In this document: positions 21,365 through 56,438 of the stretch, one piece after another | How the letters are laid out: the number at the start of each line of letters is the position of its first letter | How positions within the stretch are numbered: the first letter of the stretch is position 1 | Source: Escherichia coli | Lineage (GTDB): Bacteria > Pseudomonadota > Gammaproteobacteria > Enterobacterales > Enterobacteriaceae | DNA: 64,000 bases | Reading direction: 5' to 3' (one strand) | NCBI RefSeq assembly: GCF_024700885.2 | Contig: NZ_CP117016.1 | Notes under the pieces: model-generated | Told to the model about the DNA's origin: nothing | Database searches by the model: none | Seen by the model: the letters and a program-made list of their open reading frames with translations, nothing else | Position numbers and translations under genes: made by a program

Positions 21365-22360
21365 TCAGGTGGAACAACGGATCAACAGCGGGCAAGGGAT
21401 CCGCGTCACTCTTCCTCCTTCACGACCTTCAATAATATGCAATGCAGCTTCCCGCCCGATAATGTCATGTGGAAGCTGAATTGTGGTCAGCGGCGGTAAA
21501 AACAGATGCCCGACGCCAACCAGATTATCAAAGCCCATTACGGCGACATCCTGCGGGATACGTACCCCCTTCGCCAGGAGAACCTGATAAGCGACAAAGG
21601 CTGCGCGATCGTTACCACATATCAGAACATCAAAATCTGGTTTGCCAGATTTGAAGTGGTCATTGAGTAAACTTGCGAGATCGGTGTAGTGATCATCACC
21701 TGTTGCCATGTGAAATTGTTTCACCTCAGCCAGATCTCGTCCAGCATCACGCCAGGCCTGCTCAAATCCCTGCCGACGATACCCTGTTGCCAACGCACTT
21801 TCCGGTAGCCAGAAGCATAACGGTTGACGATAGCCCGCCGCGAGCAAATGCTGTGTTGATTCATATTGTGCAGTGTAATCATCAGGGATATAACTGGGTA
21901 ACGCTGGGTCATCCGCCACACAGTTCGCCAATACAATATTTTCACCATACAGAGACTCAGGCAGCGTGATATGTCGCAGCCCCATTGTAGTATAGATAAT
22001 GCCATCCGGACGGTGGGCAAGCAGCTGACGTGCCGCGCGGGCAGCGTCATCTTCAGAAAAAATATTGATTAAAAAACTATTCCAGCCGAACTCGCTGGCG
22101 GTTTGCTCAATGGCAAGCAGAATATCAACAGAGAAAGGAGTGGTAGCAGTGTCCTGCGCCAGCACGGCGAGAGTCGACGGCTTACGTCCTTGAGCGCGCA
22201 TCTTACGGGCGGAAAGATCAGGAACATAATTCAGGGTCTGGATTGCCTGCAATACGCGGTCACGCGTTGCAGGACGCACAGATTCTGCATTATGCATCAC
22301 CCGGGAGACTGTCATCATCGACACTCCCGCCAGGCGTGCGACATCCTTTAATGAAGCCAT
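21365..22360 (-). CDS. cscR: LacI-family transcriptional repressor of the csc genes
   Basis: 331 aa from MASLKDVARLAGVSMMTVSRV… (HTH then periplasmic-binding-like sugar domain); the longer track ORF (from 22558) adds an implausible N-terminal extension. Confidence 0.85.
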   Translation of the reverse strand: MASLKDVARLAGVSMMTVSRVMHNAESVRPATRDRVLQAIQTLNYVPDLSARKMRAQGRKPSTLAVLAQDTATTPFSVDILLAIEQTASEFGWNSFLINIFSEDDAARAARQLLAHRPDGIIYTTMGLRHITLPESLYGENIVLANCVADDPALPSYIPDDYTAQYESTQHLLAAGYRQPLCFWLPESALATGYRRQGFEQAWRDAGRDLAEVKQFHMATGDDHYTDLASLLNDHFKSGKPDFDVLICGNDRAAFVAYQVLLAKGVRIPQDVAVMGFDNLVGVGHLFLPPLTTIQLPHDIIGREAALHIIEGREGGRVTRIPCPLLIRCST

Positions 22361-22590
22361 ACCCAAGCCGTTTGCCGTAAAACGGGCACTGTAGCAGAAA
22401 CAGACGTCACTGGCGAGATCCAACGATATTCTCAACGCCCTATCACCCGACACGGCAATACAATAAAAAATAACAATAATTCCCGGACAATTGTGCCCAA
22501 TTCCGCCTCTGTTCTCGCCAACGAGTAACCATATAGGCAAGTAGGTAAAACATGCCAACTGGCATCGCCAACCTGGAGAAGAAAATATAA

Positions 22591-22821
22591 ATATGGATCA
22601 TTGTGCTGCCGCTGTATCCCGACATCAGCCCGGAAATTATTGCGATTGCTATCGGTTCAGGTGCGATTGGCTGCACGATCGTTACGGACTCGCTTTTCTG
22701 GCTGGTGAAGCAATATTGCGGCGCTACGCTCAATGAAACATTTAAATACTATACGACAGCGACATTTATCGCTTCAGTCGTCGCTCTGGCGGGCACATTC
22801 CTGCTGTCATTTATCATCTAA
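22591..22821 (+). pseudogene. dsdX: 3' remnant of D-serine transporter gene dsdX (GntP family), truncated by the csc insertion
   Basis: About 76 codons of hydrophobic GntP-like C-terminus (…IAIAIGSGAIGCTIVTDSLFWLVKQYCG…FLLSFII) with no N-terminal body, ending 17 bp before dsdA. Confidence 0.7.
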
Positions 22822-24275: not shown

Positions 24276-25814
24276 TCACCCAACACCTTTCGCTGTAAAC
24301 GGCGGTTTCGCAAACCAAACCAATACCGTAAGTAAGATAAAAGCAATAGCCGCCATACGGAAAATCTCATTTGCAGAAATTGAAAGTGATTGCTGAGTTA
24401 TTTCATTATTAATTTCATTAAGAACCCCTGAAAGCGAACCATAGTATTTATCCATAATTTGTGACGATGAATTAAACACGGGGTTAAATTGATCGATGGT
24501 TGCTGTCAACTGACTATGGTGTAACGATTCGCGTCGTCCCCACAGCGTCATTGTCAACGACGTACCAACTGATCCTGACAAGGTACGAAAAAAATTACTC
24601 ATACTCGAGGCATTAGCAAATTTATTATCTGGCAAACCTGAAAACGAAATCGTTGTTAAGGGTAAAAAGAAACAGGCGACGGCGAATCCCTGAAAAAACT
24701 GTGGCAAAATGATGCCTGTAAAATCAATCGTTGGCATAAATGTCACAGAACGCCAGTAATAGCAAACCGCATACATCAAAAAACTAAATGTCACTAACAA
24801 CCGCATGTCTATTTTGTTGCCATAACGTCCTATCAAAGGTGAAATTAATAGTGGCATGATGCCGATGGGCGCATAAGCAAGTCCGGCCCATATCGCATTA
24901 TACCCCATCGTTTCCTGGAGTAACTGCGGCATAAGGACGATCGCCCCAGAGTAAAATAAATATGCGCATGTGATACTCACAATACCAATGGTGAAATTAC
25001 GGGACTTAAATAAACTGAGATCAAGAATCGGATTCTCTGAGGTCGACTCCCAAATGACTAAAGAAATCAGAGAAATAACTGACACTACTGTTAGTATTAT
25101 TATTGTACTCGAGTTGAACCAATCCAGATCGCGCCCTTTATCAAGCATTATCTGCAAGCCACCAACACCGAGCACTAACAGGGTCAGTCCTGGTAGATTC
25201 ATTTTGACCGGTGAAGTCTCAGTTTCTCTTCCTTTAAGTAAGGTTAAGCATAATGTCAGGACGATAATCCCCATTGGGACATTGATTAAAAATATCCAAC
25301 CCCAGCTAAAGTTATCGCAAATGTAGCCACCCAATATCGGCCCACATATCGGAGCGATAATTACGGTCATTGACCATAATGCCAGAGCAAATGTTCTTTT
25401 TTCTGGCGGATAATTCCTTAATAATAAACTCTGTGACAGTGGAATTAACGGCCCCGCCATTAATCCCTGAACGACTCTAAAAAATATCAGCACATCAAGA
25501 TTGGTCGATAAACTACACATTAAGGAAGACAGCGAAAAAAAAGTGACTGAAAGTAAAAATAACCTTAATTCGCCTATTCTTTGTGCCAGCCTGCCGGTAA
25601 CAGGGATCGCAATGGCATTTGCTACGCCAAACGAAGTGATAACCCAGGTGCCTTCGTCTGTTGATGCTCCCAGAAAGCCAGATATTGTCGGTATTGCGAC
25701 GTTAGAAATAGTGGAATCCAACATTTGCATAAACGTCGCTAATGACAATGCAATAGTAACGCACCATAACGTCCCACCGGTTAATGGTGCCGGAGTTGAT
25801 TTAGTGATTGCCAT
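24276..25814 (-). CDS. emrY: multidrug efflux MFS transporter (EmrB paralogue)
   Basis: 512 aa 14-TM MFS ORF; overlaps emrK by 1 bp; synteny with evgAS. Confidence 0.95.
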   Translation of the reverse strand: MAITKSTPAPLTGGTLWCVTIALSLATFMQMLDSTISNVAIPTISGFLGASTDEGTWVITSFGVANAIAIPVTGRLAQRIGELRLFLLSVTFFSLSSLMCSLSTNLDVLIFFRVVQGLMAGPLIPLSQSLLLRNYPPEKRTFALALWSMTVIIAPICGPILGGYICDNFSWGWIFLINVPMGIIVLTLCLTLLKGRETETSPVKMNLPGLTLLVLGVGGLQIMLDKGRDLDWFNSSTIIILTVVSVISLISLVIWESTSENPILDLSLFKSRNFTIGIVSITCAYLFYSGAIVLMPQLLQETMGYNAIWAGLAYAPIGIMPLLISPLIGRYGNKIDMRLLVTFSFLMYAVCYYWRSVTFMPTIDFTGIILPQFFQGFAVACFFLPLTTISFSGLPDNKFANASSMSNFFRTLSGSVGTSLTMTLWGRRESLHHSQLTATIDQFNPVFNSSSQIMDKYYGSLSGVLNEINNEITQQSLSISANEIFRMAAIAFILLTVLVWFAKPPFTAKGVG

Positions 25815-26977
25815 TAAAGTTGTCCATTATGCGAAATAATGTTGCTAATTTCTTTTTCTATCGGACTGGTATCGATAACTAAAGCCTTACTGGTATAAGC
25901 AGGCATGGACGTCACGGTTGAAGCCAGCTCAGGCATCTCGGCAATGTCTTCGTTCTTCGTATCAATAGTTGCTGTCATCGATAAACCAATACGTAAGGGA
26001 TGTTCCATGAGTTCTTTTGGATCAAGAGAAACTTCAACCGGTACACGCTGAACGATTTTGATCCAGTTCCCTGTCGCATTTTGTGCAGGTAATAAGGAGA
26101 ACGCATTGCCGGTTCCCATATTGATCCCTGTCACCCGACCATGAAACACAACATTTTCACCATAAAGATCGCTGATAATATTGACCGATTGACCAATCCG
26201 CACATCCGTGAGTTGTGTTTCTTTAAAGTTGGCATTAACCCACATTTGACGTGCCGGTACGACAGCCATTAACGATTGTCCGGGACTCACTGTTTCGCCG
26301 ACCTGAACGCTTCTCTGGGCAATATAGCCGGTAACAGGACTCTTAATATCCGTACGTTTAAGCGCTAACCAGGCTTCTTTGGTTGCATCCGCCGCTTCAA
26401 CGACTTGTGGCTGACGGTTTAATGGTGTGTTCATTACTAAAGCTTTATTCGCTTTATAAGCCTGGATAGCGGCATTCAATGCCGCTTTGCTACTTATTAA
26501 CGTATCTTTGGTATGCTCCAGCGTTTCTTTTGAAATAACCCCCTGCTTCGCTAAAGGTACACGACGGTTATAATCTTCTAAAGATTGTTGATACTGAATA
26601 CGAGCTGAAGCGACTTCGGCACTGTATTGTTTATCCTGTAAGTACAGTTTATTCGTTTGCCGAACAATATTTGCCAGATTATTTTTAGCTTTATTGAGTG
26701 CGATAGTGGCATCAGTTTTATCTAGTGAAACTAAAATGTCACCCTGTCGAACGTAGTTCGTATCTTTATGATTAACGACAGTGACACTACCTGAGACTTG
26801 TGCAGAAATTGGATCTGCATTCCCCGTGACATAGGCGTCATCTGTACTAATCATGTCTTCTAATTCCATTGACCAATAGGCATAGGCACCTGAAAACGCA
26901 ATAAATAAAACTACCGCCAATAAAGAAAAGTATTTTCTTCTGTTAGAATGTTTTTTATTTGAATTAATCTGTTCCAC
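25814..26977 (-). CDS. emrK: multidrug efflux membrane-fusion protein (EmrA paralogue)
   Basis: 387 aa ORF with single N-terminal TM, coiled-coil and beta-barrel MFP regions. Confidence 0.95.
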   Translation of the reverse strand: MEQINSNKKHSNRRKYFSLLAVVLFIAFSGAYAYWSMELEDMISTDDAYVTGNADPISAQVSGSVTVVNHKDTNYVRQGDILVSLDKTDATIALNKAKNNLANIVRQTNKLYLQDKQYSAEVASARIQYQQSLEDYNRRVPLAKQGVISKETLEHTKDTLISSKAALNAAIQAYKANKALVMNTPLNRQPQVVEAADATKEAWLALKRTDIKSPVTGYIAQRSVQVGETVSPGQSLMAVVPARQMWVNANFKETQLTDVRIGQSVNIISDLYGENVVFHGRVTGINMGTGNAFSLLPAQNATGNWIKIVQRVPVEVSLDPKELMEHPLRIGLSMTATIDTKNEDIAEMPELASTVTSMPAYTSKALVIDTSPIEKEISNIISHNGQL

Positions 26978-27150
26978 TATTATCTCTCATTTCGCATAGA
27001 TGAAATTTATGAATTGAATGAAAAGAGTATTCATTCTTCATATCAAACACAGTGCATGTGTTGCACATTATCCCAGGAACGTTGGAGGCCTAATTTAAAT
27101 GAGGTGCAAAAGAAACAACAGAGGACTAAACCGTGGCTTTTGCAATAAAA

Positions 27151-27168
27151 TTCTTACGCCTGTAGGAT
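27151..27168. promoter_or_regulatory. putative EvgA box in emrK-evgA intergenic region
   Basis: TTCTTACGCCTGTAGGAT is an imperfect inverted repeat matching my recollection of the EvgA consensus TTCPyTACA-N2-TGTAPuGAA. Confidence 0.4.
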
Positions 27169-27392
27169 TAGTGAGAAGACTTATAGTGCCAATGTGAAAC
27201 TATAAATCATCGGTACAATCCCTGATTTTATTGTTGACATTTCATTTATGCCGACTATTTATATGGTATACTTGTCGAATTATCTTAAAGGAAGCTCAAA
27301 TTTTCTTATTTTTATTGAGAAAGTGAGATGATGCCTTATGTCTGTATTACTACAGGGAGAAGGGAGATGCTTCATTGCAAAGGGAATAATCT

Positions 27393-28007
27393 ATGAACGC
27401 AATAATTATTGATGACCATCCTCTTGCTATCGCAGCTATTCGTAATTTATTGATCAAAAACGATATTGAAATCTTAGCAGAGTTGACTGAAGGCGGAAGT
27501 GCCGTTCAGCGGGTGGAAACACTTAAGCCTGATATCGTCATCATTGATGTCGATATCCCCGGAGTTAACGGTATCCAGGTGTTAGAAACGCTGAGGAAGC
27601 GCCAATATAGCGGAATTATTATTATCGTCTCCGCTAAAAATGACCATTTTTACGGGAAACATTGTGCTGATGCTGGCGCTAATGGTTTCGTGAGTAAAAA
27701 AGAAGGCATGAACAATATCATTGCGGCTATTGAAGCTGCAAAAAATGGCTACTGCTATTTCCCCTTCTCTCTCAACCGGTTTGTTGGAAGTTTAACGTCC
27801 GACCAGCAAAAACTCGACTCCTTATCGAAACAAGAAATTAGTGTCATGCGATATATTCTTGATGGCAAGGATAATAATGACATTGCTGAAAAAATGTTCA
27901 TCAGCAACAAAACTGTCAGCACGTATAAAAGTCGCCTGATGGAAAAATTAGAATGTAAATCACTGATGGATCTTTACACATTCGCACAACGTAACAAAAT
28001 CGGCTAA
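27393..28007 (+). CDS. evgA: two-component response regulator EvgA (NarL/FixJ family)
   Basis: 204 aa ORF with receiver domain (MNAIIIDDHPLA…) and LuxR-type HTH. Confidence 0.95.
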   Translation: MNAIIIDDHPLAIAAIRNLLIKNDIEILAELTEGGSAVQRVETLKPDIVIIDVDIPGVNGIQVLETLRKRQYSGIIIIVSAKNDHFYGKHCADAGANGFVSKKEGMNNIIAAIEAAKNGYCYFPFSLNRFVGSLTSDQQKLDSLSKQEISVMRYILDGKDNNDIAEKMFISNKTVSTYKSRLMEKLECKSLMDLYTFAQRNKIG

Positions 28008-28011
28008 CCAC

Positions 28012-31000
28012 ATGAAGTTTTTACCCTATATTTTTCTTCTCTGTTGTGGTCTTTGGTCGACCATAAGTTTCGCAGACGAAGATTACATCGAATATCGTGG
28101 CATCAGTAGTAACAACCGTGTCACGCTTGATCCACTACGTCTGAGCAACAAGGAATTACGTTGGTTAGCGAGCAAAAAAAATCTTGTGATTGCAGTACAC
28201 AAGTCCCAAACGGCTACTTTGTTGCATACCGATTCGCAGCAACGGGTTCGTGGTATTAATGCTGATTATTTAAATCTGTTAAAAAGAGCATTAAATATCA
28301 AATTAACACTACGGGAATACGCAGATCATCAAAAAGCAATGGACGCGCTGGAAGAAGGTGAAGTCGATATAGTGTTATCACATTTAGTTGCTTCGCCGCC
28401 TCTTAATGATGACATTGCTGCAACCAAACCGCTGATAATTACCTTTCCGGCGCTGGTCACCACCCTTCACGATTCAATGAGACCGCTTACCTCATCAAAA
28501 CCAGTAAATATTGCTCGGGTAGCAAATTACCCTCCAGACGAGGTAATTCATCAATCATTTCCAAAAGCAACAATTATCTCTTTTACAAATTTATATCAGG
28601 CATTAGCATCCATCTCAGCCGGACAGAATGATTACTTTATTGGTAGTAACATTATTACCAGCAGTATGATTTCCCGCTATTTCACTCACTCCTTAAATGT
28701 AGTGAAATATTATAACTCACCGCGTCAATATAATTTTTTCTTGACCAGAAAAGATTCAGTCGTTCTTAATGAAGTACTCAATCGATTTGTTGATGCTTTA
28801 ACAAATGAAGTTCGCTATGAAGTATCACAAAATTGGCTTGATACAGGAAACCTGGCCTTTCTGAACAAACCATTAGAACTCACTGAACATGAAAAACAGT
28901 GGATTAAGCAGCATCCCGATTTAAAGGTGCTGGAAAATCCTTACTCGCCACCCTATTCTATGACAGATGAAACTGGCTCAGTTCGGGGCGTGATGGGTGA
29001 TATTCTTAATATTATTACCTTGCAAACAGGTTTAAATTTTTCTCCGATCACCGTTTCACACAATATTCATGCGGGGACACAGCTTAACCCCGGTGGATGG
29101 GATATATTGCCCGCCGCTATTTATAGTGAAGATAGAGAAAATAATGTTTTATTTGCTGAAGCCTTCATAACAACGCCTTACGTTTTTGTCATGCAAAAAG
29201 CGCCTGACAGTGAACAAACATTAAAAAAAGGAATGAAAGTTGCCATTCCCTATTATTATGAGCTTCATTCGCAATTAAAAGAGATGTATCCGGAGGTAGA
29301 GTGGATAAAAGTCGATAACGCCAGCGCTGCATTTCACAAGGTCAAGGAAGGCGAACTTGATGCTCTGGTCGCGACACAGTTAAATTCACGTTACATGATC
29401 GACCATTACTATCCTAATGAACTTTATCATTTTCTTATTCCCGGCGTTCCGAATGCATCGCTTTCGTTCGCTTTTCCTCGCGGAGAACCGGAACTTAAGG
29501 ATATTATTAATAAAGCACTGAATGCAATTCCCCCAAGCGAAGTTCTGCGCCTGACGGAAAAATGGATTAAAATGCCCAATGTGACCATTGACACATGGGA
29601 CCTCTATAGCGAGCAATTTTATATTGTCACGACATTATCCGTTTTATTAGTTGGCAGTAGCCTTTTATGGGGATTCTACCTGTTACGCTCAGTTCGTCGT
29701 CGTAAAGTCATTCAGGGTGATTTAGAAAACCAAATATCATTCCGAAAAGCACTCTCGGATTCCTTACCGAATCCAACTTATGTTGTAAACTGGCAAGGTA
29801 ATGTCATTAGTCATAATAGTGCTTTTGAACATTATTTCACTGCGGATTACTACAAAAATGCAATGTTACCATTAGAAAACAGTGACTCACCCTTTAAAGA
29901 TGTTTTTTCTAATGCGCATGAAGTCACAGCAGAAACGAAAGAAAATCGAACAATATACACACAGGTATTTGAAATTGATAATGGCATCGAGAAAAGATGC
30001 ATTAATCACTGGCATACATTATGCAATCTGCCAGCCAGCGATCATGCTGTTTATATTTGTGGTTGGCAAGATATTACCGAGACGCGTGATTTAATTCATG
30101 CACTCGAAGTAGAGAGAAATAAAGCGATCAATGCAACTGTCGCAAAAAGCCAGTTTCTGGCAACAATGAGTCACGAAATAAGAACACCAATAAGCTCCAT
30201 TATGGGCTTCCTGGAACTTTTGTCGGGTTCTGGTCTTAGCAAGGAGCAACGGGTGGAGGCGATTTCACTTGCCTACGCCACCGGACAATCACTCCTCGGC
30301 TTAATTGGTGAAATCCTTGATGTCGACAAAATTGAGTCGGGTAACTATCAACTTCAACCACAATGGGTCGATATCCCTACTTTAGTCCAGAACACTTGTC
30401 ACTCTTTCGGTGCGATTGCTGCAAGCAAATCCATCGCATTAAGTTGCAGCAGTAAGTTTCCTGAACATTACCAGGTTAAGATCGACCCTCAGGCGTTTAA
30501 GCAGGTCTTATCTAATTTACTGAGCAATGCTCTCAAATTTACCACCGAGGGGGCAGTAAAAATTACGACCTCCCTGGGTGACATTGATGACAACCACGCT
30601 GTTATCAAAATGACGATTATGGATTCTGGAAGTGGATTATCGCAGGAAGAACAACAACAACTGTTTAAACGCTATAGCCAAACAAGTGCAGGTCGTCAGC
30701 AAACAGGTTCTGGTTTAGGCTTAATGATCTGCAAAGAATTAATTAAAAACATGCAGGGCGATTTGTCATTAGAAAGTCATCCAGGCATAGGAACGACATT
30801 TACGATCACAATCCCGGTAGAAATTACCCAACAAGTGGCGACTGTCGAGGCAAAAGCAGAACAACCTATGACACTCCCTGAAAAGTTGAGTATATTAATC
30901 GCGGATGATCATCCGACCAACAGGCTATTACTCAAACGCCAGCTAAACCTATTAGGATATGATGTTGATGAAGCCACTGATGGTGTGCAAGCGCTACACA

Positions 31001-31605
31001 AAGTCAGTATGCAACATTATGATCTGCTTATTACTGACGTTAATATGCCGAATATGGATGGTTTTGAGTTGACTCGCAAACTCCGTGAGCAAAATTCTTC
31101 CTTACCTATCTGGGGGCTTACAGCCAACGCACAGGCTAACGAACGTGAAAAAGGGTTAAATTGCGGCATGAACTTATGTTTGTTCAAACCGTTGACCCTG
31201 GATGTACTGAAAACACATTTAAGTCAGTTACACCAGGTTGCGCATATTGCACCTCAGTATCGCCACCTTGATATCGAGGCCCTGAAAAATAATACGGCGA
31301 ACGATCTACAACTGATGCAGGAGATTCTCATGACTTTCCAGCATGAAACGCATAAAGATCTACCCGCTGCGTTTCATGCACTAGAAGCTGGCGACAACAG
31401 AATTTTCCATCAGTGTATTCATCGCATCCACGGTGCGGCTAACATCCTGAATTTGCAAAAGTTGATTAATCTTAGCCATCAGTTAGAAATAACGCCCGTT
31501 TCAGATGACAGCAAGCCTGAAATTCTTAAGTTGCTGAACTCTGTTAAAGAACACATTGCAGAGTTAGACCAGGAGATTGCTGTTTTCTGTCAACAAAATG
31601 ACTAA
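28012..31605 (+). CDS. evgS: hybrid sensor histidine kinase EvgS
   Basis: 1197 aa ORF with signal peptide, tandem periplasmic solute-binding-like domains, TM, HisKA (…SHEIRTP…), HATPase, receiver and HPt domains. Confidence 0.95.
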   Translation: MKFLPYIFLLCCGLWSTISFADEDYIEYRGISSNNRVTLDPLRLSNKELRWLASKKNLVIAVHKSQTATLLHTDSQQRVRGINADYLNLLKRALNIKLTLREYADHQKAMDALEEGEVDIVLSHLVASPPLNDDIAATKPLIITFPALVTTLHDSMRPLTSSKPVNIARVANYPPDEVIHQSFPKATIISFTNLYQALASISAGQNDYFIGSNIITSSMISRYFTHSLNVVKYYNSPRQYNFFLTRKDSVVLNEVLNRFVDALTNEVRYEVSQNWLDTGNLAFLNKPLELTEHEKQWIKQHPDLKVLENPYSPPYSMTDETGSVRGVMGDILNIITLQTGLNFSPITVSHNIHAGTQLNPGGWDILPAAIYSEDRENNVLFAEAFITTPYVFVMQKAPDSEQTLKKGMKVAIPYYYELHSQLKEMYPEVEWIKVDNASAAFHKVKEGELDALVATQLNSRYMIDHYYPNELYHFLIPGVPNASLSFAFPRGEPELKDIINKALNAIPPSEVLRLTEKWIKMPNVTIDTWDLYSEQFYIVTTLSVLLVGSSLLWGFYLLRSVRRRKVIQGDLENQISFRKALSDSLPNPTYVVNWQGNVISHNSAFEHYFTADYYKNAMLPLENSDSPFKDVFSNAHEVTAETKENRTIYTQVFEIDNGIEKRCINHWHTLCNLPASDHAVYICGWQDITETRDLIHALEVERNKAINATVAKSQFLATMSHEIRTPISSIMGFLELLSGSGLSKEQRVEAISLAYATGQSLLGLIGEILDVDKIESGNYQLQPQWVDIPTLVQNTCHSFGAIAASKSIALSCSSKFPEHYQVKIDPQAFKQVLSNLLSNALKFTTEGAVKITTSLGDIDDNHAVIKMTIMDSGSGLSQEEQQQLFKRYSQTSAGRQQTGSGLGLMICKELIKNMQGDLSLESHPGIGTTFTITIPVEITQQVATVEAKAEQPMTLPEKLSILIADDHPTNRLLLKRQLNLLGYDVDEATDGVQALHKVSMQHYDLLITDVNMPNMDGFELTRKLREQNSSLPIWGLTANAQANEREKGLNCGMNLCLFKPLTLDVLKTHLSQLHQVAHIAPQYRHLDIEALKNNTANDLQLMQEILMTFQHETHKDLPAAFHALEAGDNRIFHQCIHRIHGAANILNLQKLINLSHQLEITPVSDDSKPEILKLLNSVKEHIAELDQEIAVFCQQND

Positions 31606-31611
31606 ATAGCG

Positions 31612-31638
31612 GCTCCCACAATATTCAAATGTGGGAGC
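31612..31638. terminator. hairpin between convergent evgS and yfdE (putative bidirectional terminator)
   Basis: GCTCCCACA-atattcaaa-TGTGGGAGC followed by TATTT, 7 bp after the evgS stop. Confidence 0.4.
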
Positions 31639-31660
31639 TATTTACCAGCACATCTTACAT

Positions 31661-32806
31661 TTATGATGAGAACTCCTGGCGAATTTGTTCCCCATGTTGG
31701 TCGAGCGTTGCCGCTCCCGGCATAACATGCGGGTCCGCGCAGCCGCTGATTTTTATCGGATTACCTGGCATCATTATTCCCCCGGCTTCAATCAACATAT
31801 TTCTCGCCTGAGTTTGTGGCAAATTAATGGCCTCAGCCACACTTAATAACGGCGCGACGGGCACACCAACTTCATGTATTTTGGCTAACCAAACTTCAGC
31901 TGCCTGCGTTTTTAACGTTCGCTCAATATATTGTTTAAGAATAGCCTGGTTTTGTACGCGTAAAATATTGCTGCTAAATCGGGGATCATTAACCAGTTCC
32001 GTAAGCTCCAGTGCCTGACATAACGCAGAAAAAAGCTTGTCATTACCACAACAAATAGTAATCGGCTTATCCTGAGTATCAAAAACATCAAAAGGTGCCA
32101 TGTAGGGATGGCGATTTCCCAGGCGTTGTGGTGACTTCCCTGTCGCAATATATGCCATCAGACCATGCTCCAGAAAACTCAGCGTGGCATCAAACATCGC
32201 TATATCGACATGCGCCCCTCTCTGGCTCTTTTCGCGGCCATAAAGTGCACTCACTATTCCGCTGAATAAATAGACACCGCCACATAAATCCGCAAGAGAG
32301 GTACCCACGCGCACTGGCGGAGCATCAGGGTACCCTGTTTCCATCATTATCCCGCTCATTGCCTGAATAATGGTATCGTAGGCAGGAGCATCTTTTAACG
32401 GACCGGTATGCCCGAAACCCGACGATGAAGCATATATGAGGCGCGGGTTGATTTCTTGTAACCTTTCCCATGAAAACCCCAGTTTTTCCATTGTACCTGG
32501 GCGAAAATTCTCAGCTAATACATCCGCTTGTTTAAGCATATTTATAAATATGCTTTTATCGTGATCATTCTTTAAATCAAGAACCACACTCTCTTTGCCA
32601 TGATTAATAAAACTGTAATAGAGTGACTGTCCATCCACATAGGGACCAAATGTGCGGGTATCATCACCATGACCTGGCGGCTCAACTTTAATTACCCTTG
32701 CGCCCATATTACAAAGAAGTTGAGTTCCGAAAGGCCCATTAAGGACATGCGTCATATCGATAACTAATAAGCCTTCAAACGGCCCTTTACATTCATTATT
32801 GGTCAT
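31661..32806 (-). CDS. yfdE: CoA-transferase family III protein
   Basis: 381 aa from MTNNECKGPFEGLLVIDMTHVLNGPF… (CaiB/BaiF family); track ORF starts 13 codons upstream. Confidence 0.9.
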   Translation of the reverse strand: MTNNECKGPFEGLLVIDMTHVLNGPFGTQLLCNMGARVIKVEPPGHGDDTRTFGPYVDGQSLYYSFINHGKESVVLDLKNDHDKSIFINMLKQADVLAENFRPGTMEKLGFSWERLQEINPRLIYASSSGFGHTGPLKDAPAYDTIIQAMSGIMMETGYPDAPPVRVGTSLADLCGGVYLFSGIVSALYGREKSQRGAHVDIAMFDATLSFLEHGLMAYIATGKSPQRLGNRHPYMAPFDVFDTQDKPITICCGNDKLFSALCQALELTELVNDPRFSSNILRVQNQAILKQYIERTLKTQAAEVWLAKIHEVGVPVAPLLSVAEAINLPQTQARNMLIEAGGIMMPGNPIKISGCADPHVMPGAATLDQHGEQIRQEFSS

Positions 32807-32879
32807 TTGCTTATACCTTGAAAAAAGCCGAAGGTGAAAAGACACTTCGGCATTTATGTAAAATCAATAACATGATTAA

Positions 32880-33824
32880 TTATGAAACCAGTCGACTGAC
32901 ATAAATCCACAAGGGAGCCGTGACGACAAAACCCAGTACGCTCACAGCCAATGACGCTGTACCAGTGCGGGTGTAGACATTAAACCGACTGGCAATAATG
33001 ATTCCGGAGAATGCCGGCGGTAAAGCGCCTGCCAGTACCATCATCTGCAAATGTTCGCTGTTCAAATGACATGCCATACCAACGAGAAGCAGCGCCAGTG
33101 GCATCAGAATCAGCTTCAGGAAGGTGTTATAAGCAATTTCGGCACTGAACTCGAATTTATGTGCAGCCAGAGTCAACCCCGCAGCGAATACCGCTACCCC
33201 TGAGTTAGCCTTCGCAATCAGATTAAAGGTTGGGTCCCATGCTGCCGGAATTTTTACCCCAACCAACACCAGGATCGTTGCCAGAACAGGTGCCCATACT
33301 ACTGGCTCCTTTGCCGCAGAAATTAATGCGCTCAGATTACTATTCTTCTTACCATCCGCTCCTGAGGAAGGATTCAGCAAATACAGACCAATAGGAATAG
33401 TAATTGCGTTAACAATAATAGAAATAATTGCTACCACTAAACCTGTTGATACGGAATCACCATAAATAGGGTCGAGAACTGCAAACCCCAGGAATCCGAT
33501 GGTAGGTGAGCCTGCAATTAATGCACATACTGCTGCTTCTGCATGGGTACGTTTAAAAAATTTGTAGCAACCAAACCAGGAGAAAAAGAAACATCCGACA
33601 ATAACCACAAGTGATACAAGGGTCAGGCGAGTGTCCGCAAAAATCATTTCCCTGTTTGCCCGGGTAATAGAAACAAATAGGGCCGCAGGAAGAGCGTAGT
33701 TTAATACCAGTTTATTAAATGCCCGAGCTTGATCTTCTGAAAAAGTTTCTCGTCTGCCGCTAAAATAACCCAACAGCATGATTACGATAATAGGCAATAA
33801 ATCGCCAATAAAAAATGTTAGCAT
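32880..33824 (-). CDS. yfdV: auxin-efflux-carrier family membrane transporter
   Basis: 314 aa polytopic membrane ORF; sits between yfdE and oxc as in K-12. Confidence 0.9.
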
Positions 33825-33892
33825 AATAGTATTTCCGATAAGGGTCCCCTCACCATCGATAATGAGTTGGCAAGAGGAGACGATGTCAGTAT

Positions 33893-35587
33893 TTAATTAC
33901 CAGCGACTTGTTTTGGGTTAAGTTTGGTAATATGGCCACTTTCAGTTCCTGCTGCAGGGTCGATGACCACATTAATAATGGTCGGTTTGCGCGACTGAAT
34001 ACCGGTAGTTAAAGCATGACGAAGTTCATCTGTCGTGGTGACGTTATAACCAACGCCACGAAACGCATCCATTAATTTGTCATACCTTGCATGGTGCAAT
34101 AGATCTGTTGGTGATGGTGCACCAGCGCCACTGAGATCAACACCGTCTCCTCTGTAGATGCCGCCATTATTAAAAATAACGATCGTCACCGGCAGGTTAT
34201 ATCGACAAATCGTTTCAATCTCCATCCCACTGAAACCAAAAGCACTATCACCTTCAATGGCGACAACCGGAGAACCAGAGGTCACGCTAGCACCGATGGC
34301 ATAGCCCATACCGATGCCCATGACACCCCAGGTGCCACAATCCAGACGACGACGTGGTTTATACATATCAATAATATTTCGTGCATTATCCAAGGTATTT
34401 GCCCCTTCATTAACTAAATAAATATCCTGGTTCTCACGCAATACATCGCGCACAGCACTCAATGCATTAAAGTAATTTAATGGTTGGGTATCTGTACTTA
34501 ACTTTTCATGCATTTTTTGCGCATTTTGCTGCTTGTGGATATTTAAAATATCGCGCCACACCAGCGGAGTCGTAAATGTGTTTTGTTTCAATTCTGCCAG
34601 CATACCTTGCATACTGGATGCAATATCGCCAACGACTGGCACAGCAATGGGGCGGTTGCTGTCAATTTCCTGCGGTTCAATATCCAGTTGAATAAACTGT
34701 GTATCTGCCGCCCATCCTTTTTTACCGTGCGCCAGTAACCAATTCAGTCGTGCACCAACAAGCATGACAACGTCAGCATTTGCCAGGGCAAACGAACGCG
34801 CAGCTGCCGCAGAAAGTGGATGCGTATCTTCCAGGATCCCTTTCGCCATAGACATTGGCAGGAATGGAATCTGGGCACTTTCAATAAATTCACGAAGCTG
34901 TTCATCAGCTTGTGAATACGCCGCGCCTTTGCCAAGGATAACTAATGGACGTTCAGCTTTTGCTAAAAGCGAAATTGCGCTAGTGACTGACTTCGGGCAT
35001 GGCAATAATGCTGGCGACGGATTTTCAACTTTAACAATCGTGGTTAACGCTTCGTCTTTTTCCATCGTCGCGGCCAGGACATTTGCTGGTAAATCAAGAT
35101 AAACTCCGCCAGGGCGACCCGATACTGAGACCCGGATAGCGCGTGCCAATGCAATGCCAAGATCCTGCGGCTGATTAACGCGGAATGCTGCTTTGGCATA
35201 CGGTTTTGCCGCATTCATTTGGTCCAGCTCTTCATAATCACCTTGCTGTAGGTCGACGATCGCGCGGTCGCTGGAGCCGCTAATCATGATCATCGGAAAA
35301 CCATTTACCGTTGCGTTGGCCAATGCGGTCAAACCATTGAGGAATCCTGGCGCAGACACTGTCAGGCAGATCCCCGGTTTTTGGGTAAGAAAACCGCTTG
35401 CCGCAGCGGCATAGCCTGCCGACTGCTCATGACGAAAACCAATATAACGAATGCCTTCCGCCTGGGCATGGCGCGCCATATCCGTCACAGGAATACCTAC
35501 AACACCATAAATAGTGTCAATATCATTCTGTTTTAATGCTTCAACGATGATATGCATACCATCTGTCATTTGAAGTTGATCTGACAT
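33893..35587 (-). CDS. oxc: oxalyl-CoA decarboxylase (ThDP-dependent)
   Basis: 564 aa ORF with ThDP-enzyme motifs (…GVVGIPVTD…, …[22 protein letters not shown]…). Confidence 0.95.
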
Positions 35588-35640
35588 GATTAATAACCTC
35601 GAAATTTTTATAAATTGGGAGCCAGAAGCCCCCGTTAATA

Positions 35641-36891
35641 TCAGATGGCGTGGTTTTGCTTCATTGCAGCAATTTCATCGTCGCTATAACCCAGCTCCTG
35701 CAATACAGCAGCGGTATGTTCACCTAATAGCGGCGCAGCTTTAATATCCGGCGTAAAGGCAGAGAATTTCATTGGACAACCAACTGTCAGATATTTTCCA
35801 CGCAACGGTTGTTCCACTTCGACGACACTGCCACTTTGGCGCAAAGAGGGATCAAGTGAAATTTCTTTCATACTTAAAACCGGTGCGCAAGGAATATCAA
35901 ACTGAGTCAAATAGGCCACCGCTTCATGTTTATCAATAGTGACAGTGTATTTTTCGATTTCAGCAAAAATATCGAAAATATGTGGCTGTCGGGCATGGGC
36001 TGTACTGTATGCCGGATCGGTAATCCAATCTGGTTTGCCGATGGCTTTACAGGTGTTTTCCCAGTTTTGCTCCTGAATAGTGAAATAAATATAGGCGTTA
36101 GGATCGGTTTCCCAGCCTTTACATTTCAGGATCCAGCCAGGCTGACCGCCACCACCCGCATTACCTCCGCGGGGAACTGCATCACCAAATGTGCCATTCG
36201 GATACTGCGGGTATTCTTCCAGATAACCCAATTTATCGAGACGCTGCTGGTCGCGTAATTTCACGCGGCAAAGGTTCAATACGGCATCCTGCATTGACAT
36301 GGTAACTCGTTGACCACGCCCCGTTTTTTCGCGATGCAGCAAAGCAGCAAGTAAACCGATCAGCAAATGCATTCCGGTGTTGCTGTCACCCAACGCTGCA
36401 GCGCTTACCAGCGGCGGGCCGTCCCAAAAACCTGTAGTGGATGCCGCACCACCCGCTGCCTGAGCAACGTTTTCATAGGCTTTTACATTCACATAAGGCG
36501 AACACTCATCAAACCCTTTGATCGAACCAAAAATCAAACGTGGATTGATTTCTTGAATATGCTCCCAGGTGAAGCCCATGTGATCAATGGCCCCTGGATG
36601 AAAGTTCTCGACTAAGATATCAGCTTCGCGGATCAGCTTTTCCATTACCTCTTTGCCTTCCGCTGTTTTGGTATTTAATTCAATAGAACGTTTGTTACTG
36701 TTAAGCATGGTGAAGTAAAGCGCATCGATATCAGGAATATCTCGCAGCTGGTGACGCGTTACGTCACCAACGCCGGGACGTTCAATTTTAATGACGTCAG
36801 CGCCAAACCAGGCCAGCATTTGAGTACAAGATGGGCCAGATTGCACACCGGTGAAATCGAGAACTTTAATTCCTTGAAGTGGAGTTGACAT
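35641..36891 (-). CDS. frc: formyl-CoA:oxalate CoA-transferase
   Basis: 416 aa ORF, family III CoA-transferase, beginning [20 protein letters not shown]…. Confidence 0.95.
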
Positions 36892-37142
36892 AGCAATACC
36901 TATTAGTTAATTAAATATATGTTAATTTAGCGTTTATTTAAGGCATAACGCCCTCTATAAATAATCCGCAAAATATCGTCGTAGCTGCACTCGATATTTT
37001 TAAATTCCTGTATCAAGTGCTGAAAATCATTTCATCGCCACTTCCAATTCCTTTCTGCATGGTAAGTAGTGAGGACGAAAAGAAGAATATGATAAATATT
37101 GGTTCGCGGTAATCAGAGAGAGCCGCGACATTTGTGATGTTA

Positions 37143-37160
37143 TTCTTACAACTGTAAGAA
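37143..37160. promoter_or_regulatory. putative EvgA box upstream of frc
   Basis: TTCTTACA-AC-TGTAAGAA, a perfect 8-bp inverted repeat with 2-bp spacer, about 250 bp upstream of the frc start. Confidence 0.4.
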
Positions 37161-37403
37161 GCGCCGGTGATTTACAAGTAAGGGTATGATTACGCCTTTT
37201 AAAGCGTACCATAAAACATAACATAATAAATGATTTGTGATGACACGGGATTATTGCGGTTTACTTTGAGGAAGATAAAATGCGAGTTTATAGAACCGCG
37301 AGCGCCAAATAATTTTATGACCACAACCTGTCGTATTGTGGTCATAAAAAATTGTCGGCTGGAGGGAGTTAAATCCTTTACCTCAATATACTGCCTGTCA
37401 GCG

Positions 37404-38036
37404 TTAGTTCACAAACAGTGCTTCGCTATCGACGATGATTCCATCTTCCGCACCTTTAAGCGCCAGGTTTGCCTCGTAGTATTGCTTTTTATCAAGCAGT
37501 TTCTGCGCATCAGCAAGTGCATTACGAGTCTGTTTGAGCGGCATCAGATATTGGTTTTCCATTACGCCAACACCGGCCAGGCGCAGCTCTTCCATTGCGC
37601 CCTTTTTATCCCCTTTCGCCATTTTTTCGTTGGCAATTTTTATCGCGGCTTCTTTTTCGGGTGTCGCTACATAACTCTCAGAAATTCCGACAGATGCATT
37701 AATGACAATATATTGGTCATCATTGACATTGGTCTTTTTACCTGGCTTAGCGAACTTTGCCCATTCGGTACTGTCATCTGACAACAAAGCTGAAGCTTCA
37801 TTGGTCAGTTCTTTTGCCTTTTCCGGATCGCCATGAAACAGAGCCAGGCGCGCTACCTGCACGTCACGCATCGCATATAAACCTTGTTCAGAGATACGCT
37901 CTGCTGCTGCCGTTTTCTGGGTTTGCTGAACTTGCTGAGTTTGCTGTTGTGCCGCTACCGGTGCATTATCAGCCGCCCATACAGTTGAAGATGCCAGAAT
38001 TGCTGTGACCATCGTAGCCATAATTAAACGTTTCAT
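37404..38036 (-). CDS. yfdX: periplasmic protein YfdX (EvgA-regulated in K-12)
   Basis: 210 aa ORF with signal peptide (…[14 protein letters not shown]), Ala/Gln/Lys-rich. Confidence 0.85.
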
Positions 38037-38171
38037 ACTTACCTCATTCTTTAACAGTTTTAGAAAACGCCGCCATCATATTGGGTGAGCATGAAATGAG
38101 AAATCAGAGAGCAACGGTCATTTTGAAAGGGTTATCTTACAGTTGTAGTTATTATCGCAAGAAGTATTTTA

Positions 38172-38189
38172 GTCTTACAATTGTAGGAA
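38172..38189. promoter_or_regulatory. putative EvgA box upstream of yfdX
   Basis: GTCTTACA-AT-TGTAGGAA inverted repeat about 135 bp upstream of the yfdX start. Confidence 0.35.
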
Positions 38190-38331
38190 TATGCTTCCTG
38201 TCGCAGAGAACTATTCTTATATACCACAAAGAGATGTCATTTATTATATCGATGTAAATACTGATTAATTAAATGTAAATACAGCCATAACATCGTAGGT
38301 TCTCAGTGAGCCATTCTCAGGATAACTTTCT

Positions 38332-38607
38332 ATGAAAGTAAACTTAATGCTTTTTAGCTTATTTTTATTGGTCTCTATTATGGCATGCAATGTTTTTGCA
38401 TTTTCCATTTCTGGTGGTGGAAGTGAGACGAGCTATAAAGAGACAGAAAAAACGTCAGTGATGACGACAACTCATTCTACAAAACTTCAGCCATCACAGG
38501 CGATTTTGTTTAAGATGAGAGAAGATGCGCTACCATTAAATCTCACAGAAGACATCACGCCCCCTTTTCCGACAAAGGCGAATTATCTTATTCATCCTGT
38601 GCGATAG
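38332..38607 (+). CDS. ypdI: small secreted/lipoprotein-like protein YpdI
   Basis: 91 aa ORF with hydrophobic signal sequence and Cys (…VSIMAC/NVFA…). Confidence 0.7.
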   Translation: MKVNLMLFSLFLLVSIMACNVFAFSISGGGSETSYKETEKTSVMTTTHSTKLQPSQAILFKMREDALPLNLTEDITPPFPTKANYLIHPVR

Positions 38608-38683
38608 CGTCTGTCACATGGCAGGTGAACAATCATATCTGTTGATGATGTGAGCACCTGCCCAAATGATCCATCCTGAACTA

Positions 38684-38926
38684 CTACCGCCTGCCATACC
38701 CCACCATAAAGCGAATCATCAAGCCACAAGCCGGGGCAAGAAACATAAATATCCCCGTCACTAGTTCATTACCGCCTGTTAACCACATGGTGAAGTAGTA
38801 AATGAGTGCAGCGAGGATCACCATGCCGAAGAAAGAAGAGACCGCCGAGACCACGTTCAGTACCTGACCGATGTATCCGCTTACGCAGACAATACACAGG
38901 GCGAGAAACATCCATAAATAAATCAT
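38684..38926 (-). CDS. yfdY: small inner-membrane protein YfdY
   Basis: 80 aa ORF with two or three TM helices. Confidence 0.7.
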   Translation of the reverse strand: MIYLWMFLALCIVCVSGYIGQVLNVVSAVSSFFGMVILAALIYYFTMWLTGGNELVTGIFMFLAPACGLMIRFMVGYGRR

Positions 38927-55056: not shown

Positions 55057-55578
55057 ATGAAACATTCATTTGAAGTAAAACTTGCCGCTGTAAATCATTA
55101 CCTGGCCGGTCATGCAGGCATCATTTCTACGGCAAAACTCTTTCAACTTTCTCACACCAGCCTCTCACACTGGATTAATCTTTTTCTTCTTCACGGTCCT
55201 CGGGCACTGGATTGCAGACACAAGCGTAGCTATTCTCCTGAAGATAAACTTTGCGTGGTTCTTTATGCTCTCGGGCATTCTGAGTCTCTACCCCGGGTAG
55301 CTGCCCGGTTTAACATTCCCAGCCACAACACGGTTAAAAACTGGATAAAAGGCTACCGCAAATCTGGTAATGAGGCCTTTATCAGGCGCAGGAAGGAGAA
55401 AAGCATGACCCGTTCTGATGATACCCATGAAAACGAGGCAAACATGACGCCGGAAGAGATGAAGAATGAGCTGCGTTATCTTCGCGCAGAAAATGCATAT
55501 CTGAAAGCCATGCAGGAGCATCTCCTGGAAAAAAAGCGCCAGGAGCTGGAGAAAAAACGAAAGTCATCCGGAGCCTGA
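55057..55578 (+). CDS. IS3-family transposase OrfA (HTH / leucine-zipper part)
   Basis: 173 aa from MKHSFEVKLAAVNHY…; ends just after the A AAA AAG slippery heptamer (55530-55536). Confidence 0.85.
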   Translation: MKHSFEVKLAAVNHYLAGHAGIISTAKLFQLSHTSLSHWINLFLLHGPRALDCRHKRSYSPEDKLCVVLYALGHSESLPRVAARFNIPSHNTVKNWIKGYRKSGNEAFIRRRKEKSMTRSDDTHENEANMTPEEMKNELRYLRAENAYLKAMQEHLLEKKRQELEKKRKSSGA

Positions 55579-55682
55579 GGTGCGGACACTGCCAGCCTGA
55601 CCTGTTAAAGGCTGCAGGGCTGGCCAGAAGCACGCTGTACTACCAGCTGTCACTGCAGAAGGCTAAGGACAAGTATGCTGAT

Positions 55683-56438
<756 letters not shown>

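Follow-up and report, generated by a model that had tools for sequence, protein, structure and literature searches.

The 18-bp inverted repeats that lie upstream of emrK, frc and yfdX in this Escherichia coli strain very probably serve as operators for EvgS/EvgA, a two-component system that senses acid. For this assignment, the K-12 literature supplies the evidence of EvgA binding and of expression that depends on EvgA. The boxes are already known, as they are described EvgA binding sites of E. coli, and they are identical to those of K-12. Therefore, they represent ordinary, well-known regulatory wiring.

Inverted repeats in the emrK–ypdI region

The stretch of DNA that we analysed (64 kb, hereafter the window) is a segment of the E. 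coli chromosome in which the genes follow the order emrKY-evgAS-yfdE-yfdV-oxc-frc-yfdX-ypdI. An exact-position check of the window located TTCTTACGCCTGTAGGAT at 27151–27168 (box 1), TTCTTACAACTGTAAGAA at 37143–37160 (box 2) and GTCTTACAATTGTAGGAA at 38172–38189 (box A, the third site), all read on the + strand; as features, the boxes carry no strand assignment. All three 8-2-8 inverted repeats proposed in a sequence-only reading of this DNA are thus present. Complementarity between the two arms extends to 5/8, 8/8 and 6/8 positions, respectively, which makes box 2 the sole perfect palindrome among the three. An additional box, ATCTTACAGTTGTAGTTA, which was absent from that list, is found at 38134–38151 (box B; arms 4/8). 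We assume the EvgA consensus to be TTCYTACA-N2-TGTARGAA with the half-site TTCYTACA, in keeping with a data-driven matrix; a text search of the literature for the consensus string returned nothing relevant. When compared with the pattern TTCYTACANNTGTARGAA, box 1 has two mismatches, box 2 none, box A one and box B three. The resemblance to an EvgA consensus that had been claimed for the three listed sites therefore holds for this presumed pattern, and the motif is common to unlinked promoters of EvgA targets.

The annotation agrees with the genes proposed for the three sites. Box 1 lies between the divergent genes emrK and evgA, at a distance of 173 nt upstream of emrK, its target being the emrK-emrY efflux operon (24276–26977, − strand). 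It also faces the divergent evgA, which begins 224 nt away, and reads ATCCTACAGGCGTAAGAA in the emrK direction. Box 2 lies 251 nt upstream of frc, ahead of the frc-oxc-yfdV-yfdE oxalate/acid-tolerance operon (31661–36891, − strand) and downstream of a terminator-like hairpin 3' of yfdX (37313–37349, − strand). This hairpin, with a 15-bp stem and a T run, is kept in four genomes and forms a boundary between yfdX and the frc promoter with its box 2. The third site occupies the yfdX-ypdI intergenic region, 135 nt upstream of yfdX (37404–38036, − strand) and 142 nt ahead of ypdI, which is transcribed divergently (38332–38607, + strand); box A is the distal and box B the yfdX-proximal element of this pair. 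No RNA family was detected by Rfam over positions 26900–38700.

EvgA binding has been described in K-12 at the promoters of emrKY, yfdX and frc (PMC3720670, PMC8174306, PMC8147483). The sites at emrKY/evgAS, frc (yfdW) and yfdX are attributed to Kato 2000, Masuda & Church 2003 and Itou 2009, as cited in PMC3720670, PMC8147483 and PMC8174306. EvgA control has been reported for emrKY (PMC8174306), for frc-oxc-yfdV-yfdE (PMC3720670, PMC4283999) and for yfdX (PMC3720670, PMC8147483). Inverted repeats bound by EvgA induce yfdX and yfdWUVE (PMC3720670), and in the K-12 literature frc is the most induced gene of evgS-constitutive mutants.

Recurrence of the motif and alternative origins

A weight matrix was trained on three sites outside the window only, namely those of the K-12 safA, ydeP and yegR promoters, unlinked EvgA targets that carry the motif 106–243 nt upstream. 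The K-12 hdeD-gadE intergenic region has no box at up to four mismatches, so gadE was unusable as a training site. When all positions of the 64-kb window were scored, box 2, box 1, box A and box B took ranks 1, 2, 3 and 4, respectively; all top four matches are thus confined to the three relevant intergenic regions. At a score of at least 14 bits, three sites were found against 0.37 expected. Counting matches with at most three mismatches gave a similar picture, with four in the whole window versus 0.67 expected, and none of 100 dinucleotide shuffles reached four.

These results bear directly on the idea that the boxes are functionless palindromes formed by chance. Box 1 and box A are indeed imperfect, and at a score of at least 12 the matrix expects 1.6 matches per shuffled window. 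Nevertheless, the shuffles, the top ranking in an independently trained matrix, and the fact that the spacers drift while the half-sites are kept (see below) together contradict a chance origin, which we consider extremely improbable. Slightly less remote, but still very improbable, is the proposal that the boxes are operators of another LuxR/NarL-family regulator, such as RcsB, GadE or NarL/NarP. The GerE helix-turn-helix is common to such regulators, which likewise read short inverted repeats, and a title cited in PMC8147483 reports yfdX as RcsB-regulated in Klebsiella. However, further copies of the motif occur specifically at unlinked promoters that EvgA induces, and the literature credits EvgA itself with binding at the emrKY, yfdX and frc promoters. 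Moreover, among the matches listed in a search for contigs with Frc, the enterobacteria were one Escherichia genome, Moellerella and Providencia; the latter two possess frc-oxc-yfdV, lack evgAS and show no box. Other LuxR-family regulators were rejected on these grounds: the motif shows specificity for EvgA targets and, among these matches, is absent where evgAS is absent.

Conservation of boxes and regulator

All four 18-mers are identical to those of K-12 MG1655 at the orthologous positions, and gene content, order and spacing also agree. On the K-12 chromosome, the four boxes occupy, in order, 2483513–2483530, 2493506–2493523, 2494500–2494517 and 2494538–2494555. Relative to K-12, the three intergenic regions carry 28 substitutions, none of which falls into a box, although this comparison alone is not significant (0/28 differences in 72 box bases versus 1.65 expected). 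A clearer pattern emerges from four Escherichia genomes, in which 227/1225 intergenic columns (18.5%) are variable: only 2/56 half-site columns vary as opposed to 4/8 spacer columns (hypergeometric P = 8e-4). From the alignment, the half-sites appear to be under purifying selection with the 2-bp spacer drifting. The core of box 1 is kept in the four genomes, and its single change, in L006, goes toward the consensus; in box 2 a spacer base alone varies. Across complete E. coli genomes, box-containing oligomers occur in 5397–5408 of 5426, the 36-mers of box 1 and box 2 being present in 5397/5426 and 5406/5426, respectively.

The regulator is equally well preserved. EvgA (27393–28007, + strand), annotated as a response regulator, is identical to K-12 EvgA at 204/204 residues (100%) and comprises the Pfam domains Response_reg and GerE/LuxR helix-turn-helix (GerE, E = 2.8e-22). 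A GerE-type regulator is therefore found together with inverted repeats with a 2-bp spacer, as is characteristic of NarL/LuxR-type operators. The hybrid sensor kinase EvgS (28012–31605, + strand) is annotated as such and intact, with 1197 amino acids, 29 substitutions relative to K-12 and the full Pfam set of SBP_bac_3, HisKA, HATPase_c, Response_reg and Hpt. With boxes identical to K-12, an unchanged EvgA, an intact EvgS and constrained half-sites, the earlier suggestion that the regulon wiring is conserved in this strain is well founded.

Promoter layout and the possible roles of boxes A and B

The boxes share a fixed arrangement with the sequences downstream of them. In all six promoters read toward their genes (emrK, frc, yfdX with box B, safA, ydeP and yegR), a CA is present at +9/10 from the box, a TCY at +26–28 and a −10-like hexamer near +53, versus CA or TCY in 0/6 of the opposite orientations. 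For emrK, the putative −10 element is TTAAAT (27093–27098, − strand), 53 nt downstream of box 1 and inside the block CTCATTTAAATTA, which is conserved in four genomes. For frc, TATCAT (37089–37094, − strand) is the candidate, 49 nt downstream of box 2; CATATT and TATTCT at +52/+54 are overlapping alternatives, and TATCAT lies in a conserved block. The presumed yfdX element, TATGAT (38075–38080, − strand), is located 54 nt downstream of box B and is invariant in four genomes, and the distance between the two is the same as at emrK, frc, safA, ydeP and yegR. A candidate −10 element for ypdI, TATTAT (38242–38247, + strand), is found 53 nt downstream of box A and is also kept in four genomes. In the emrK and frc regions, a generic sigma-70 scan yielded promoter-like sites no more often than in shuffled sequences; since enrichment was lacking in two of three regions, the start sites remain putative.

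The third site had been assigned to the yfdX promoter. It does lie upstream of yfdX, yet box B, not box A, holds the canonical yfdX position, and box A may instead, or also, serve ypdI. That box A mainly activates the divergent ypdI promoter while box B activates yfdX has, in our estimation, nearly an even chance of being correct. In the ypdI direction, TCTTA at +26–30 and TATTAT at +53–58 come after box A, an arrangement that matches the six reference promoters, and these ypdI-side elements are kept in four genomes. In the yfdX direction, by contrast, the layout features are missing altogether from box A and complete at box B, including TATGAT at +54. The centre-to-centre distance between boxes A and B is 38 bp, or about 3.6 helical turns, which places them on different faces of the helix. 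Furthermore, the PMC6892915 supplement lists ypdI as a member of the EvgA i-modulon, and PMC5811628 describes its co-induction with yfdX, yegR and ydeO. Several points argue against this division of labour. No CA is present at +9/10 when box A is read toward ypdI, and boxes A and B could cooperate on yfdX. In the i-modulon table, where the TF column of the ypdI row is misaligned, the motif match for ypdI is the sequence of box B, not box A (PMC6892915 supplement). Finally, chance alone would put a TCY at a given position with a probability of 1 in 32, so the support for linking box A to ypdI is modest.

Taken together, the layout allows a tentative proposal, which we judge to be somewhat less probable than the assignment of box A to ypdI alone: EvgA promoters may possess a rigid extended layout with BvgA-like downstream oligomerisation of EvgA, and yfdX (box B) and ypdI (box A) may be served by back-to-back promoters. 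The layout would consist of a primary box centred about 73–74 bp ahead of the start, an invariant CA 9–10 nt after the box and, next to the −35 region, a half-site-like TCYTA at exactly 42 bp, or four helical turns, past the distal half-site. It is the TCYTA at 42 bp within a fixed layout that suggests oligomerisation of the BvgA type. If the proposal is true, ypdI, a colanic-acid lipoprotein gene, would be a direct EvgA target.

Proposed mechanism and significance

According to the model that follows from the K-12 studies, mild acid would switch on the hybrid kinase EvgS, which would then phosphorylate EvgA, a NarL/LuxR-type response regulator. An EvgA dimer would bind each 18-bp 8-2-8 inverted repeat through the TTCYTACA half-sites and thereby turn on a weak downstream promoter of the sigma-70 type. 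Box 1 would drive emrKY from a region common to the autoregulated evgAS, box 2 would drive frc-oxc-yfdVE, and the box pair between yfdX and ypdI would drive yfdX and probably ypdI. Judging from sequence only, the start would lie about 73–74 bp downstream of the box centre, with a −10 hexamer about 53 nt past the box. The predicted starts are thereby placed near 27085 for emrK, 37077–37082 for frc and 38068 for yfdX (all − strand), and near 38254 for ypdI (+ strand).

In this strain, from a lineage of E. coli that is commensal or clinical, the EmrKY efflux pump, the operon for oxalate/formyl-CoA acid tolerance and yfdX remain wired to EvgAS as in K-12. Therefore, results on the control of acid and drug resistance in K-12 should be transferable to it. 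The significance of the analysis lies mainly in annotation; mildly useful additions are the second box of the yfdX region, the orientation argument that ties one box to ypdI, and the fixed box-promoter geometry.

Comparison with known systems

The closest known counterparts are the EvgA sites of K-12, with which the window shares the four 18-mers, the genes, their order and spacing, and the EvgA protein. Differences from K-12 consist of the 28 intergenic substitutions outside the boxes and the 29 amino-acid changes in EvgS. BvgA is the Bordetella orthologue of EvgA and recognises heptad inverted repeats; NarL sites have a 7-2-7 arrangement. The likeness to these systems presumably comprises a NarL/LuxR-type regulator, a dimer bound to inverted half-sites 2 bp apart, and a half-site resembling T-T-C-C/T-T-A. 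In addition, the TCYTA found in the window 42 bp past the distal half-site brings to mind secondary BvgA sites extending toward −35. The BvgA and NarL systems differ from the present one in organism, regulon and signal. The boxes of safA-ydeO, ydeP and yegR in K-12 have the 8-2-8 motif and the polarity in common with those of the window, as well as the CA at +9/10, the TCY at +26–28 and the −10-like hexamer near +53, whereas their loci lie outside the window and their spacers and outer bases differ. In both sets the half nearer the promoter reads TGTAAGAA or TGTAGGAA, and the outer two bases of the distal half are degenerate.

EvgA boxes in the emrK-ypdI region

The sequence-only reading had listed three 18-nt inverted repeats resembling EvgA boxes, and all three were found exactly at the positions given for them, i.e. 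in the emrK/evgA region (box 1, 27151-27168), upstream of frc (box 2, 37143-37160) and between yfdX and ypdI (box A, 38172-38189). The complementarity of their 8-nt arms amounts to 5/8, 8/8 and 6/8, respectively. A scan allowing up to three mismatches to TTCYTACANNTGTARGAA, taken as the EvgA consensus, gave four sites in 64 kb compared with 0.67 expected, and none of 100 shuffles contained four or more matches. The fourth site, ATCTTACAGTTGTAGTTA (box B, 38134-38151), is absent from the earlier list and lies 20 nt from box A. Three unlinked EvgA targets of K-12, safA, ydeP and yegR, have the same motif upstream. A symmetrised weight matrix built from these three K-12 sites only, and by design independent of that consensus, ranked the four boxes first to fourth among all window positions (20.7, 18.4, 15.6 and 13.1 bits). 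The next score in the whole window, 11.4 bits, falls inside coding sequence, and three sites reach at least 14 bits compared with 0.37 expected. The original observation is thereby confirmed, and the boxes are more than a chance occurrence.

Genomic context and regulator

A 13.5-kb query around the boxes matched 5425 of 5426 complete E. coli genomes and was 100% identical to strain MLI114, from whose record the window flanks outside the query differ at 0 and 5 positions. According to the annotation carried over from that record, emrY (24276-25814) and emrK (25814-26977) on the minus strand are followed by evgA (27393-28007) and evgS (28012-31605) on the plus strand, then by yfdE (31661-32806), yfdV (32880-33824), oxc (33893-35587), frc (35641-36891) and yfdX (37404-38036) on the minus strand and by ypdI (38332-38607, plus strand), next to which come yfdY and lpxP. 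The order from emrY to lpxP is that of K-12. The nine-codon leader ORF evgL (b4781 in K-12), which overlaps the evgA start codon, occupies the corresponding position (27367-27396, plus strand). Elsewhere in the window, a sucrose-utilisation cluster missing from K-12 (17475-22821; LacI-family regulator, cscA, kinase and MFS transporter) is inserted between tRNA-Arg and dsdA, with dsdX reduced to a fragment (22603-22821), and in the matching record the IS3-family element IS1397 (55057-56405) separates mntH from ypeC.

In mild acid, EvgS phosphorylates itself and passes the phosphate on to EvgA, which binds an inverted repeat as a dimer and activates transcription. EvgA of the window is identical to K-12 EvgA in 204 of 204 residues, with a Response_reg and a GerE domain; the full-length EvgS differs by 29 substitutions and retains all domains of the hybrid kinase. 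Direct observation covers the boxes, where they lie, how well they are conserved and that the regulator is intact.

Conservation of the boxes

All four boxes are identical at the orthologous positions of K-12 MG1655, and the 28 differences in the three intergenic regions all lie outside them. Since this comparison by itself is not significant for constraint (0 box changes versus 1.65 expected), the B2-type strain SF-173 and L006, a divergent Escherichia genome from the Frc scan (EvgS 90.6% identical), were added to the alignment. Among the four genomes, 227 of 1225 intergenic columns are variable, as are only 2 of 56 half-site core columns, one of which shifts the emrK box toward the consensus, and 4 of 8 spacer columns (hypergeometric P = 8e-4). 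A dimeric helix-turn-helix operator would be expected to show just this pattern, with the half-sites under constraint and the 2-bp spacer free to vary. In L006, the emrK/evgA box (19729-19746) reads TTCCTACAGGTGTAAGAA, two changes nearer to the consensus than ATCCTACAGGCGTAAGAA of E. coli.

Box-containing oligomers are present in 5397-5408 of the 5426 E. coli genomes. In one representative (SF-173) of the 91.7% identity class of the frc 36-mer, all three differences are in the flank and none in the box. In a few E. coli strains the double-box region between yfdX and ypdI is split into two pieces, and at least one of these strains has an annotated IS5-family transposase there; the control region of yfdX and ypdI would thus be naturally disrupted in them. 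Loci of Moellerella and Providencia (each around 10001-15600) contain frc-oxc-yfdV without evgAS, yfdX or an EvgA-type box. Therefore, the boxes travel with evgAS rather than with the oxalate genes, which are wired differently outside Escherichia. At both loci, a second frc-like CoA-transferase follows frc-oxc-yfdV.

Promoter layout

Six promoters were compared, namely emrK, frc, yfdX (box B) and K-12 safA, ydeP and yegR. Read toward the gene, each box has its better half on the promoter-proximal side (TGTAAGAA or TGTAGGAA) and shows degeneracy in the outer bases of its distal half. Common to all six are a CA at +9/10 counted from the box, TCY at +26-28 and a -10-like hexamer that begins near +53/54; in the opposite orientation, CA or TCY occurs at none of the six. 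A -10 hexamer at +53 places the predicted box centre near -73/-74. The -35 regions are poor, which would be expected of promoters that depend on an activator. A generic promoter scan was not enriched over shuffles in two of the three intergenic regions, so the start sites are predictions. Because frc/yfdX and safA/ydeP resemble pairs of paralogous promoters, the sample effectively comprises about four, and the argument for a fixed extended EvgA promoter layout is suggestive only. The frc and yfdX promoters have in common the decamer CTCTCTGATT (37111-37120 and 38102-38111, minus strand), exactly 22 nt downstream of the boxes, which suggests that the promoters are paralogues or have a further element in common; in the four genomes there is no change in the yfdX copy and only one, T to C in L006, in the frc copy.

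The assignment of box 1 to emrK agrees with this layout, which fits toward emrK and not toward evgA, with the qualification that the region is divergent and common to both genes. A terminator-like hairpin (37313-37349) between yfdX and box 2 is consistent with a separate frc promoter. The frc leader is long (about 190-250 nt) and includes a well conserved block (37013-37060, minus strand) with a 15-codon ORF, MQKGIGSGDEMIFST, lacking an obvious Shine-Dalgarno sequence; its 3' half is not conserved in L006, and Rfam gave no family match.

For yfdX, the earlier reading had picked a real box, A, but missed box B, whose spacing to the yfdX -10-like hexamer is the canonical one. Box A conforms to the layout in the ypdI direction only, with TCTTA (38215-38219) and TATTAT (38242-38247) conserved in all four genomes. 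A tentative model, slightly more doubtful than probable, is that box A serves ypdI and box B serves yfdX. ypdI has been assigned to the EvgA i-modulon, where its motif match is box B (PMC6892915), and it was induced together with yfdX, yegR and ydeO in a glutathione transcriptome (PMC5811628).

Comparison with the EvgA regulon of K-12

emrK, frc and yfdX belong, as had been claimed, to the EvgAS regulon of K-12. yfdX and yfdWUVE are induced via inverted repeats that EvgA binds (PMC3720670), and the emrKY promoter is bound directly (PMC8174306). In evgS-constitutive mutants frc showed the highest induction, emrKY and oxc were also induced, and the EvgA site was confined to known direct targets (PMC4283999). 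The i-modulon comprises emrK, emrY, frc, oxc, yfdE, yfdV, yfdX, ypdI, ydeP, ydeO and yegR (PMC6892915). For K-12, these reports therefore speak for the interpretation on two points, namely whether the EvgA motif might be a different one and whether frc and yfdX are expressed in an EvgA-dependent manner.

Every EvgA-box feature examined was found in the boxes, which are the K-12 EvgA sites, unchanged in sequence. With identical boxes, an identical EvgA and a full-length EvgS, the proposed conservation of EvgA wiring in this strain is supported. The finding is correct and already known from K-12; the one point of modest novelty is that EvgA promoters may share a fixed extended layout, with what this would imply for ypdI.
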